64,000 nt of DNA from Escherichia coli (GTDB lineage Bacteria > Pseudomonadota > Gammaproteobacteria > Enterobacterales > Enterobacteriaceae), in the NCBI RefSeq assembly GCF_016903815.1, contig NZ_CP069973.1. One strand, written 5' to 3'. Numbering within the stretch: position 1 is the stretch's first letter; the number at the start of each line of letters is the position of its first letter. Below, in pieces: positions 1-12,000 of the stretch. Made by a program: the position numbers.

Positions 1-3000
1 TATTGGTGTACTGGAAAGCGGCATCACAGAGGCAATGTATCAGGAAATGGAACGGCTGATTGCTGATGCCAAACCTGCAAGCCGCCACCTTATTGGTCTG
101 AACATTACCCGGGACATTCCCGGCTACCTGTTTGCCGGTGGTGTGGCTTATGACGGCGATGTAATTACGGTTTACCCCGGATAAGTGAGGAATAATGAGC
201 ACAAAATTCAAAACCGTTATCACCACTGCCGGTGCAGCAAAGCTGGCAGCGGCAACCGCGCCGGGAGGGCGGAAGGTCAACATTACCACGATGGCCGTCG
301 GGGATGGCGGTGGTAAATTGCCTGTCCCGGATGCCGGACAGACCGGGCTTATCCACGAAGTCTGGCGACATGCGCTGAACAAAATCAGCCAGGACAAACG
401 AAACAGTAATTATATTATCGCAGAGCTGGTTATTCCGCCGGAGGTGGGCGGTTTCTGGATGCGTGAGCTTGGCCTGTACGATGATGCGGGAACGTTGATT
501 GCCGTGGCGAACATGGCCGAAAGTTATAAGCCTGCCCTTGCCGAAGGCTCAGGGCGTTCGCAGACCTGCCGCATGGTCATCATCGTCAGCAGTGTGGCCT
601 CAGTGGAGCTGACCATTGACACCACAACGGTGATGGCAACGCAGGATTATGTTGATGACAAAATTGCAGAACATGAACAGTCACGACGTCACCCTGACGC
701 CTCGCTGACCGCAAAAGGTTTTACTCAGTTAAGCAGTGCGACCAACAGCACGTCTGAAACACTGGCTGCAACGCCAAAAGCCGTTAAGACGGTAATGGAT
801 GAAACGAACAAGAAAGCGCCATTAAACAGCCCTGCACTGACCGGAACGCCAACGACGCCAACTGCGACAAAGGGGACTAATAATACTCAGATCGCAAACA
901 CGGCTTTCGTTATGACCGCGATTGCCGCCCTTGTAGACTCGTCACCTGACGCACTGAATACGCTGAACGAGCTGGCAGCGGCGCTGGGTAACGACCCGAA
1001 TTTTGCTACCACCATGACTAATGCGCTTGCGGGTAAGCAACCGAAAGATGCTACCCTGACGGCGCTGGCGGGGCTTGCTACTGCGGCAGACAGGTTTCCG
1101 TATTTTACGGGGAATGATGTTGCCAGTCTGGCAACTCTGACAAAAGTCGGGCGGGATATTCTTGCGAAATCGACCGTTGCCGCCGTTATCGAATATCTCG
1201 GTTTACAGGAAACGGTAAACCGAGCCGGGAACGCCGTGCAAAAAAATGGCGATACCTTGTCCGGTGGACTTACTTTTGAAAACGACTCAATCCTTGCCTG
1301 GATTCGAAATACTGACTGGGCGAAGATTGGATTTAAAAATGATGCCGATGGTGACACTGATTCATACATGTGGTTTGAAGCAGGCGACAACGGCAATGAA
1401 TATTTCAAATGGAGAAGCCGCCAGAGCACCACAACAAAAGACCTGATGAATCTTAAATGGGATGCTTTGTATGTTCTTGTTAAAGCCCTTTTCAGCAGTG
1501 AAGTAAAAATATCGACAGTCAATGCACTGAGGATATTTAATTCATCTTTTGGTGCTATTTTTCGTCGTTCTGAAGAATGCCTGCATATCATCCCTACACG
1601 AGAGAATGAGGGAGAAAATGGTGATATAGGGCCACTACGCCCCTTTACGCTTAATCTCAGAACTGGTCGGATAAGCATGGGGCATGGTCTTGATGTTACA
1701 GGGGATATATTTGCAAAACGTTTTGCAATTAACAGTAGTACCGGCATGTGGATTCATATGCGTGACCAGAATGTTATTTTGGGACGCAATGCGGTATCCA
1801 CCGATGGTGCGCAGGCATTACTTCGTCAGGACCACGCTGATCGCAAATTTATGATTGGTGGACTGGGGAATAAGCAATTTGGCATCTACATGATTAATAA
1901 CTCAAGGACAGCCAATGGCACCGATGGTCAGGCGTACATGGACAACAATGGCAACTGGCTTTGTGGCTCGCAAGTTATTCCTGGCAACTATGGCAATTTT
2001 GATTCCAGATATGTGAAAGATGTTCGACTTGGTTCACAGCAATATTATGGAGTGAACAACTGGCAAACATGGAATTTCCAGTGCCCGTCAGGTCATGTAT
2101 TGTCTGGTATTAATGTTCAGGATACAGGGTCCAACTCTGCCGATAATATAGCGGGCGTTTATTACAGACCCGTTCAAAAGTATATAAATGGCACCTGGTA
2201 TAATGTAGCGAGCGTTTAATATGATGCACTTAAAGAAAATAAAAGCGGGTAACGCTAAAACACTGGAACAGTATGAGTTAACAAAGAAACACGGAGTTAT
2301 CTGGCTTTACTCTGAGGACGGAAAAAACTGGTATGAGGAAGTGAAGAACTTTCAGCCAGATACAATAAAGATTGTTTACGATGAAAATAATATTATTGTC
2401 GCTATCACCAGAGATGCTTCAACGCTTAATCCTGAAGGTTTTAGCGTTGTCGAGGTTCCTGATATTACCGCCAACCGACGTGCTGATGACTCAGGGAAAT
2501 GGATGTTTAAGGATGGTGCCGTGATTAAGCGGATTTATACGGCAGACGAACAGCAACAACAGGCCGAATCACAAAAGGCCGCGTTACTTTCCGAAGCTGA
2601 ATCAGTTATCCAGCCGCTGGAACGCGCCGTCAGGCTGAATATGGCGACGGATGAGGAGCGCGCACGACTGGAGTCATGGGAACGCTACAGCGTTCTGGTC
2701 AGCCGTGTGGATCCTGCAAATCCTGAATGGCCGGAAATACCGCAATAAGTTGTATGATATCTGGAGTGAGCTAACGTATCTATGGCACAGAGTAAAACTT
2801 AATCTGACAGTCTGCTCTGTACCAAAAGCGGAACTTGCTTACATCGTGCTATGTTAGTTTGCTGGGAGCAGGTCATTATCTACGTGATTGCTATTTTATA
2901 ACTTGGATAAAATGGGGGATGAACATAATATCGAGACAGTGATTGCAGAGTTAGTCATTATAGGCGGGCATCAGTTCATGCCGGATCTCTAATGCAATTA

Positions 3001-9000: not shown

Positions 9001-12000
9001 GCTATCAGGCTTATCAGCCGGTTACGGCACCGGCTGGCCGCTCTTATGTGGACCAGAGTAAAAACGAATATCACATCAGTCTGACGGGCGGTACTGCGCC
9101 GGGGACACAGCTTGACCGCCAGTTACAGGATGCGCTCGAAAAATACGAGCGGGATAAACGTGCGCGCGCCCGTGCCAGCATGATGCATGACGGTTAAGGA
9201 GGTGACGAAAAATGATGCTCGCGTTAGGTATGTTTGTTTTTATGCGCCAGACGCTGCCACACCAGACCATGCAGCGTGAATCAGATTATCGCTGGCCGTC
9301 AAATTCCCGTATCGGTAAACGGGATGCCTACCAGTTTCTCGGTGTTGGCGAGGAAAACATCACGCTTGCCGGCGTGCTTTATCCCGAACTGACCGGCGGC
9401 AAGCTGACGATGACCACGCTCAGGCTGATGGCAGAGGAAGGCCGGGCGTGGCCGTTGCTGGATGGCACTGGCATGATTTACGGTATGTATGTCATCAGCA
9501 GGGTGAGTGAAACAGGGAGTATTTTCTTTGCAGACGGCACACCCCGGAAAATTGATTTTACGCTGTCACTCACCCGCGTTGATGAATCACTGGCCGCGCT
9601 TTATGGTGATATCGGTAAACAGGCGGAATCGCTCATCGGTAAGGCTGGCAGTCTGGCGACCAGATTCACAGGTATGACGGGGGCGGGATAATGCTGGATG
9701 CACTGACATTTGATGCAGGCAGTACGCTGACGCCGGATTACATGCTGATGCTCGACAGCAGGGATATTACCGGCAATATCAGCGGCCGTCTGATGAGCAT
9801 GACCCTGACGGATAACCGGGGCTTTGAGGCTGACCAGCTTGATATTGAACTGAACGATGCCGACGGGCAGGTCGGGCTGCCGGTTCGTGGCGCTGTCCTG
9901 ACGGTGTATATCGGCTGGAAAGGTTTTGCCCTGGTATGCAAAGGGAAATTCACCGTTGATGAGGTAGAACACCGGGGCGCGCCGGATGTGGTCACCATCC
10001 GGGCCCGGAGTGCAGATTTTCGTGGCACGCTCAATTCCCGCCGTGAAGGCTCCTGGCATGACACCACGCTCGGTGCGATTGTTGAGGCGATAGCCTCCCG
10101 TAACAGGCTGGAAGCCAGTGTCGCTCCGTCACTGGCCGGAATTAAAATCCCGCACATCGACCAGTCGCAGGAGTCTGATGCAAAATTCCTGACCCGCCTT
10201 GCTGAACGCAACGGCGGTGAGGTGTCGGTAAAAATGGGAAAACTGTTGTTTCTCAAAGCGGGGCAGGGGGTGACGTCCAGCGGTAAAAAAATCCCGCAGG
10301 TCACCATAACCCGCAGCGACGGCGACCGCCATCATTTTGCGATTGCTGACCGTGGAGCCTATACCGGCGTAACGGCAAAGTGGTTACACACCAAAGACCC
10401 GAAGCCACAAAAGCAGAAGGTAAAACTGAAACGAAAAAAGAAAGAGAAACACCTGCGCGCACTGGAGCACCCCAAAGCGAAACCAGTCACGCAGAAGAAA
10501 GCGCCAAAAGTACCGGAAGCGCGCGAAGGTGAATACATGGCCGGTGAGGCTGACAACGTTTTTGCCCTGACCACGGTATATGCCACGAAAGCACAGGCCA
10601 TGCGCGCCGCTCAGGCGAAGTGGGATAAACTGCAACGGGGTGTAGCGGAGTTCTCCATCAGTCTGGCTACTGGTCGGGCAGATATTTACACGGAAACGCC
10701 GGTCAAAGTGTCAGGCTTTAAGCGCGTCATAGACGAGCAGGACTGGACAATCACTAAGGTGACACATTTTCTGAATAATAGCGGCTTCACGACGTCCCTG
10801 GAGCTTGAGGTCAGGCTTTCTGATGTGGAGTACGAAACCGAAGATGATGAGTGATGTGTTTTATTTTATCTGTTTGTTTTATAAGGATAAATTAACTAAA
10901 ATGGCAACATCAACAAAACCGGAAGAGGTGCTCGCGATGTTTCATTGTCCTTTATGCCAGCATGCCGCACATGCGCGTACAAGCCGCTATATCACTGACA
11001 CGACAAAAGAGCGTTATCACCAGTGTCAGAACGTGAATTGCAGCGCCACGTTCATCACTTATGAGTCGGTACAGCGATACATCGTGAAGCCGGGAGAAGT
11101 CCACGCCGTAAGACCGCACCCGTTGCCGTCAGGGCAGCAAATTATGTGGATGTAATTACAATCAGGAAGCCCCTCAGTCGAGGGGCTTTTTTTGTCGATG
11201 TGGTCAATATGTGGACGTGACCAGAAATAAATCCTTTTATTTCATGTGATTAGATATCAAAAAATGTCACCAATAACTGACATTGCGGTGTTTCTCCAGA
11301 TGTGGCCCATCTGAGGCCGTGTTGGTGCGCAGCTCGAAGGCTACGTCGAGTCTGTTTTGGCAGTCACCTTAAAGTATAGATAGCTGACAAAAAAGGCTCT
11401 CGTGCTAAAAAAGGCCCCACTTTCGTGGAGCCTTTATTGTACGCTTTTTACTGTACGATTTCAGTCAAATCTAATTACATAGATTGAGTGAAGGTACGAG
11501 TAATAACGTCCTGCTGCTGTTCTTTAGTCAGCGAGTTGAAACGTACTGCGTAGCCAGATACACGGATGGTCAGCTGCGGATATTTTTCCGGGTTTTCCAT
11601 CGCGTCGAGCAGCATTTCACGGTTCATCACGTTAACGTTCAGGTGCTGACCACCTTCGATGGATGCTTCGTGGTGGAAGTAACCATCCATCAGACCAGCC
11701 AGGTTGGTCTTACGAACTTCGTCGTCTTTACCCAGTGCGTTCGGAACGATAGAGAAGGTGTAGGAGATACCATCTTTAGCGTAAGCAAACGGCAGTTTAG
11801 CAACGGAAGTCAGAGAGGCTACTGCACCTTTCTGGTCACGACCGTGCATCGGGTTAGCACCCGGTCCGAATGGCGCGCCAGCACGACGACCGTCTGGGGT
11901 GTTACCAGTTTTCTTACCATACACAACGTTAGAAGTGATGGTCAGAACAGACTGAGTCGGGATAGCGTCACGGTAGGTGTGCAGTTTCTGAATTTTCTTC

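Follow-up and report, generated by a model that had tools for sequence, protein, structure and literature searches.

We analysed a 64,000-nucleotide stretch of an Escherichia coli genome (RefSeq assembly GCF_016903815.1, contig NZ_CP069973.1; hereafter the window, at its full length), of which positions 1-11,281 very probably represent the right arm (late genes, ogr end) of a temperate P2-like phage (Peduovirus), integrated in the manner of PhiD145 in the first codons of pflA and carrying the Shedu gene sduA as cargo. P2, Wphi, R18C, pro147 and many Peduovirus isolates match at 94-96% DNA identity over ~80% of the query (megablast against 50,697 phage records). The genes all lie on the plus strand in the order H-G-(Z)-FI-FII-E/E'-T-U-D-ogr, collinear with P2, and every open reading frame (ORF) hits the Pfam family that its P2 counterpart would predict (E-values 1e-12 to 1e-60). 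Aligned globally with their P2 counterparts, FI, FII, E, T, U, D and Ogr agree in length to the residue, are 98.0-100% identical in amino-acid sequence and contain no internal stops. The resemblance to the P2 arm is real and far beyond chance.

An earlier note on this DNA had read positions 1-11200 as such an arm with an apparently intact tail module and had proposed alignment to P2 as a check; this alignment, now run, returned the identities just given for FI to ogr and no internal stops from H to ogr. The list of full-length genes in P2 order stands for H, G, FI, FII, E/E', T, U, D and ogr but not for I, of which only the last 60 codons are in the window. Likewise, the visible tail genes are intact, but the window shows just a portion of the tail module, V, W, J, R and S being located upstream of it, and a 1.5-kb sduA cassette splits G from FI. 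The statement that this end of the prophage is not degraded is borne out by the gene lengths, the near-identity to P2, the pF half-sites, the ogr terminator and a proper attR, all of which are kept; the boundary has to be moved, as the prophage ends at ~11,281, at attR. The earlier reading is thus supported yet incomplete, having omitted the Shedu cassette, the truncation of gene I and the non-P2 attachment site.

Late genes and their regulation

The arm comprises two late operons with intact genes, the activator Ogr, a promoter pF bearing an Ogr site, a frameshift signal and attR, and by sequence it looks functional. The features are listed in Table 1. The frameshift site within E, described earlier as preserved, is indeed so: GGTTTTTTG and the E' frame match those of P2, and a conceptual -1 frameshift would join E and E' into a protein of 142 residues, 141 of them as in P2. 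By analogy with P2, FI and FII would build the contractile tail, H together with G would provide the fibre, and E and E+E', the latter made by programmed -1 frameshifting, would act as chaperones of the tape measure T.

The half-sites of pF (TGT-N12-CCA) equal those of P2, and the pF region is 96% identical to that of isolated vB_EcoM-12474 phages. No exact TGT-N12-ACA was found upstream of FI, and none is present there in P2; a match to this pattern at 11265-11282 corresponds to the att core and was dismissed as coincidental. The ogr promoter region is also conserved with P2. If regulation follows that of P2, Ogr would activate pF and other late promoters once replication begins. Antisense ORFs within H, T and D (e.g. 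887-1747 on the minus strand) overlap conserved P2 genes and were discarded as spurious, and a search of the 64-kb window with Rfam at gathering thresholds gave zero matches.

Table 1. Features of the prophage arm (window coordinates; +, plus strand;., no strand assigned)
Feature	Position	Strand	Evidence
I, baseplate gene, 3' end (last 60 codons and stop)	2-184	+	Identical to P2 gpI C-terminus; cut by window edge
H, tail fibre, 674 aa	195-2219	+	Pfam Phage_tail_fib 2e-60, Phage_fiber_2, Gp34_trimer; 67% overall identity to P2 H
G, tail fibre assembly chaperone, 175 aa	2221-2748	+	Pfam Caudo_TAP 7e-37; 92% identity to P2 G
Inverted repeat, left arm, 32 nt	2801-2832	.	Pair 84% complementary; present in P2 too; 'left inverted repeat' in AJ512677.1
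Cargo cassette in place of P2 Z/fun	2839-4334 (1,496 bp)	+	P2 homology ends ~2838, resumes ~4335
sduA, Shedu end-sensing PD-(D/E)xK nickase, 408 aa	3039-4265	+	PADLOC SduA 1.4e-219; Pfam SduA_C (PF14082, DUF4263) 3e-33
Local hairpin in right-arm repeat	4335-4358	.	Could terminate sduA
Inverted repeat, right arm	4336-4367	.	'Right inverted repeat' in AJ512677.1; lies in sequence that P2 also has
GC-rich hairpin and T-run upstream of pF, terminator-like	4427-4447	+	Terminator scan; conserved in P2
Putative Ogr-binding site of pF: TGT (4462-4464), 12-nt spacer, CCA (4477-4479)	4456-4484	+	In register with annotated activator site of P2
FI, tail sheath, 396 aa	4552-5742	+	Pfam Phage_sheath_1, Phage_sheath_1C; 98.5% identity to P2
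FII, tail tube, 172 aa	5755-6273	+	Pfam Phage_tube 4e-60; 99.4% identity to P2
E, tail assembly chaperone, 91 aa	6330-6605	+	Pfam Phage_TAC_7; 98.9% identity to P2
Slippery site GGTTTTTTG (6576-6584) and predicted E' extension after -1 frameshift, end 6757	6576-6757	+	Site DNA identical to P2
T, tape measure, 815 aa	6750-9197	+	Pfam PhageMin_Tail 1.5e-45; 98.0% identity to P2
U, tail protein, 159 aa	9212-9691	+	Pfam Phage_P2_GpU 3e-44; 98.7% identity to P2
D, tail/baseplate hub protein, 387 aa	9691-10854	+	Pfam Phage_GPD 7e-27; 98.7% identity to P2
ogr, zinc-finger late-gene activator, 72 aa	10937-11155	+	Pfam Ogr_Delta 1e-21; 100% identity to P2 Ogr
Rho-independent terminator of ogr and F operon	11167-11193	+	Matches terminator annotated in P2
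attR: phage P arm and 13-bp common core ACCAATAACTGAC (11269-11281)	11194-11281	.	Core is reverse complement of pflA codons 1-5

Tail fibre

The ~450 N-terminal residues of H (two thirds of the protein) are P2-like, whereas the C-terminal ~250 diverge, with 18-54% identity to P2 per 50 alignment columns. The receptor-binding part of H is mosaic, in the usual way of phage fibres. The DNA encoding the C-terminal third of H together with G (1300-2748) is 92% identical to the fibre and chaperone region of the Mu-like Shigella phage SfMu, and the H tip and G show 86-89% DNA identity to segments of P1, P7, RCS47 and P88, which indicates that the receptor-binding module has been exchanged across phage families. 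An invertible fibre segment of the kind found in P1, P7 and Mu was ruled out, as only one H tip and one G are present and an invertase is lacking.

Shedu cassette

The cassette between G and FI is horizontally acquired, is bounded by inverted repeats and occupies the place of the lysogenic-conversion gene Z/fun. Its GC content is 40%, compared with 55% in FI-ogr, and the composition profile dips to 39-43% between G and FI. Of 5,426 complete E. coli genomes 52 carry the cassette, in each case with an identity of 99% or more and within this P2 context; an accessory or defence hotspot inside the P2 tail genes has been described (bioRxiv 10.64898/2026.02.27.708500).

The encoded SduA matches PDB entry 8PS4, 'Shedu effector protein', at 5e-274 with 407 of 408 residues identical, the sole change being Ser131 here instead of Pro. 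All of the catalytic residues (E226, Q230, D269, E283, K285 and Q314) and DNA-contact patches (R106/K116, R154/Y181 and Y256/K263) in the mutationally defined set of Loeff et al. (bioRxiv 10.1101/2023.08.10.552762) are kept. According to the same work, E. coli SduA is a tetramer in which N-terminal clamps bind free double-stranded DNA ends and the PD-(D/E)xK domains nick ~13-14 nt from the 5' end; in vivo, linear DNA is blocked and protection against T2 and T6 exceeds 30,000-fold. Given its near-identity to this protein, the SduA of the window should form an end-binding, nicking tetramer, and the lysogen should be protected against phages such as T2 and T6. Self-damage may be limited by the P2 lifestyle, in which rolling-circle replication primed by gpA would yield monomeric circles and packaging would start from circles.

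The start codon of sduA is preceded at 3 nt by the Shine-Dalgarno sequence GAGGAA. As a lysogenic-conversion gene, sduA is probably expressed in the lysogen from a weak promoter of its own, and the two hairpins downstream of it probably insulate it from pF.

A 12-nt direct repeat, GGGAGCAGGTCA, occurs just within each cassette border, at 2864-2875 and 4293-4304 (19 nt at 84%), where 0.23 matches would be expected by chance. Among the sequences compared, it is seen only where the sduA cassette is (the relatives' loci L002 of JMK_KBN3987, L005 of strain 7/2, and L006) and is absent from P2, vB_YpM_46 and the other prophage of JMK_KBN3987.

Attachment site

In a four-way alignment, the phage side of the right junction follows the attP of Yersinia phage vB_YpM_46 through the core and not that of P2, while the host side equals the start of K-12 pflA followed by the pflA-pflB spacer. 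The core ACCAATAACTGAC is common to the attR of the window, vB_YpM_46 attP and K-12 pflA, and also occurs at attL in strain 7/2. The P2 attP core was rejected as the attachment site, as P2 homology ends 13 bp short of it. The integration site of PhiD145 and PhiD160 is MG1655 coordinate 950293 (Nilsson and Haggard-Ljungquist, PMC3448106, Table 1); attR of the window falls at this spot, and the site is therefore a known alternative site of the P2 family and not that of P2 itself. A scan of the whole window for transfer RNA (tRNA) and transfer-messenger RNA genes found none, so integration was not at a tRNA site. A literature search on P2-like prophages together with pflA by name returned no paper.

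Beyond the prophage the window consists of core chromosome. From 11263 to beyond 61,000 (pflB, focA, ycaO ... elfC) it is collinear with K-12 at 96-98% identity, and the sole structural difference is a ~160-bp indel in the gloC-aspC spacer, near 44,520.

On the attL side (strain 7/2, locus L005, 9560-9713) integration changes the pflA start codon from ATG to AAG and the ~34-kb prophage parts the gene from its promoter; an in-frame ATG contributed by the phage lies 19 codons upstream (MSNLTNCNTTENTAAAGATK-SVIGRIHSF...), and the Prokaryotic Genome Annotation Pipeline calls a PflA of 265 residues. On the attR side (window 11255-11283) the orphaned pflA promoter region remains with the ATG and four codons, forming an eight-codon ORF (MSVIGDIF*).

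Complete prophages in related genomes

The upstream part of the prophage was judged from the genomes of relatives. The ogr-attR-pflB junction is present in 402 complete genomes and the pflA-int junction in 404, and several close relatives carry a complete ~34-kb prophage at pflA, where a 331-residue tyrosine integrase adjoins the gene. Strain 7/2, whose cassette and attR show 100% identity to those of the window, has a complete prophage running from pflA-int to ogr-pflB with all P2 modules. Its left part consists of pflA, int (331 residues), a C-like repressor of 103 residues with a helix-turn-helix (HTH) domain only, and Cox; its early part of a B-like gene and small early genes, a full-length A and a second cargo island; and its late part of Q, P, O, N, M, L, X, Y and K, lysis genes, R and S, V, W, J, I, H and G, sduA and FI-ogr, followed by pflB. 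The left ends of FDAARGOS_1281, NMBU-W10C18 and AR_0015 are as in strain 7/2.

The immunity region of the relatives is of P2 type, with a 103-residue repressor and Cox and without an S24 peptidase domain. P2-type prophages are not SOS-inducible. Together these make a mitomycin C test uninformative, and the induction experiment suggested earlier is a poor check for a prophage with a repressor of this kind.

The interval between A and Q is a cargo hotspot. In JMK_KBN3987 (locus L002, 12219-15740) it holds a Dcm-type cytosine methyltransferase, an O-methyltransferase-like protein and a 474-residue ATP-binding protein, and gene A is truncated at its 3' end; in strain 7/2 (locus L005, 16034-18935) it holds an HTH protein, a reverse transcriptase and an FRG-domain protein.

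Limits of the assignment and alternatives

No feature of the sequence contradicts the reading of the arm as part of a Shedu-bearing P2-like prophage, but the reading has limits. The window does not include V, W, J, most of I, R, S or the head, lysis, replication, immunity and int genes, and some relatives have a truncated or frameshifted copy of replication gene A. SduA departs by one residue (Ser131 for Pro) from the experimentally tested protein; a consensus scan of the plus strand found no sduA promoter with at least 9 of 12 matches, and the promoter annotated by the depositors of a near-identical region (TTGGAT-17-TAATAT) fits the consensus at 7 of 12 positions only. Finally, in 10 of 24 close relatives the left arm attached to it is a non-cognate one, in an inverted arrangement, and in 14 the pairing is normal, as called by comparison of coordinates, with four of the normal-state relatives inspected directly.

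One alternative is that the arm is not part of a whole prophage and is a domesticated or decaying remnant, either a tail-only (tailocin-like) element or a right-end fragment such as ogrK-yegZ of K-12. The window shows only tail genes, ogr and a defence gene, and in E. coli K-12 the right end of a P2 prophage does survive as a remnant, at a different site. Defective P2 elements that keep intact defence genes are also on record (bioRxiv 10.64898/2026.02.27.708500). A remnant is nevertheless extremely unlikely: ten reading frames are intact, FI-ogr are 98-100% identical to those of a viable phage, the complement from portal to ogr is present in every close relative inspected, and the numbers of genomes with the pflA-int and ogr-pflB junctions agree.

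A second alternative is that the 408-residue ORF is an inactive passenger and that the cassette has no defence role in the source strain. The substitution at residue 131 and the absence of a strong predicted promoter would fit this, as would the shortening of the P2-EC31 copy by a 1-nt deletion. Against it stand the full-length ORF with every mutationally defined catalytic and DNA-binding residue kept, the good Shine-Dalgarno sequence and the conservation of the cassette at 99% or more in all 52 genomes that have it, and we regard an inert cassette as very unlikely. The reading as a Shedu-bearing arm of a P2-like prophage is retained; the pairing of the arm with its left part is considered next.

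Inversion between P2-like prophages

Overall, the window matches JMK_KBN3987 best (99.6%). The left end of its matching prophage has a P2-type int and a perfect P2 core next to yegR (locus L002, NZ_CP180393.1 2338000-2384000); the P2-type core expected beside yegR in an inverted chimera is AAAAAATAAGCCCGTGTAAGGGAGATT. The reciprocal chimera, yegQ-ogr...int (PhiD145 type)-pflA, is found 1.39 Mb away on the opposite strand (locus L011, 3728000-3769000). This layout is that of a chromosomal inversion, produced by homologous recombination between two P2-like prophages that share the genome in opposite orientations. A literature search for megabase inversions between P2-like prophages turned up nothing specific. 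The pflA and yegQ/yegR sites are roughly symmetric about the terminus, and strains from the same studies occur in different inversion states.

Differences between the window and its two closest relatives are clustered in patches (19-452, 5949-6371, 6413-7007, 7094-8456 and 8480-9098), with none across 453-5948, which suggests gene conversion among co-resident P2-like prophages. Depending on the patch, the window agrees with one relative, with the other or with neither. The FII, E and T proteins are identical between the two co-resident prophages of JMK_KBN3987.

It is quite possible, if short of probable, that the arm in the source genome likewise belongs to a chimeric, excision-locked prophage produced by a ~1.4-Mb inversion with a P2-like prophage at yegQ/yegR (P2 attB). 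In that case a P2-type int and an attL by yegR would be the partners of the PhiD145-type attR; the tail genes would be intact and, given the differing cores, site-specific excision would be blocked. This is in keeping with the inverted state seen in JMK_KBN3987 and called by coordinates in ten of the 24 close relatives, and with the patchy clusters of single-nucleotide differences, which indicate recombination with another P2-like prophage. The 14 relatives in the normal state, including the four inspected directly, argue the other way, and the window itself cannot discriminate, as it begins in gene I, downstream of the crossover in JMK_KBN3987 (near X/Y). Since the arm has been re-paired by the ~1.4-Mb inversion in ~40% of the relatives checked, intactness of the whole prophage is not inferable from the window, and the caution expressed earlier, that inducibility of the whole prophage could not be judged from it, was apt.

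More tentatively, and rather doubtfully, the arm may belong to an oppositely oriented prophage pair (pflA and yegQ/yegR) that recurrently flips ~1.4 Mb, in which case the mixed states would reflect recurrent switching and not a single inherited event. If so, each flip would re-pair the arm with a different int, immunity and replication arm, alternately locking and unlocking excision, and recurrent flipping would homogenise the tail genes by gene conversion.

Implications

Beyond correct annotation the import is small, the region being a textbook P2-type late arm with an sduA allele of published structure and mechanism. The lysogen should be scored as Shedu-positive, through its prophage; mitomycin C is unsuited to testing a P2-type prophage; and prophage completeness must be judged against the inversion state of the genome. 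The one mildly unusual point in an otherwise known region is the frequent 1.4-Mb inversion among close relatives, which lies outside the window.

Comparison with known systems

Bacteriophage P2 (NC_001895) shares with the arm its gene order, the slippery site, the ogr terminator, the Int P-arm sequence and the inverted repeats bordering the Z-region. It differs in having Z/fun (minus strand, 1.6 kb) where sduA (plus strand) is found here, in the C-terminus of H, and in the IHF and core part of the attachment site, hence its use of the yegQ/yegR site as opposed to pflA.

Across the whole G-FI interval the window shares 99.1% identity with the P2-EC31 proviral Z-region (AJ512677.1), in which ORF1 is annotated as a 'putative lysogenic conversion protein' and the same flanking inverted repeats are marked together with a -35/-10 pair. 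That record was deposited two decades ago, before Shedu was recognized, and differs by a 1-nt deletion at the equivalent of window position 3994, which leaves an ORF of 363 residues compared with 408 here. EcSduA, the type I Shedu of E. coli KTE10 (PDB 8PS4, 8PS5 and 8PS6), is likewise a single-gene system with the same catalytic and DNA-contact residues; it has Pro131 and was carried on an arabinose-inducible plasmid, whereas the copy in the window has Ser131 and its native prophage context.

For the attachment site, coliphages of the PhiD145/PhiD160 type share the host site at the start of pflA according to the listed coordinate, the likeness being one of site coordinate. The attP-derived arm of vB_YpM_46 is identical up to the core, and this phage carries other cargo in its Z-region. 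Every component of the arm therefore has a close published counterpart, in P2, the P2-EC31 Z-region, the EcSduA structures and the PhiD145/PhiD160 site, and is already known.

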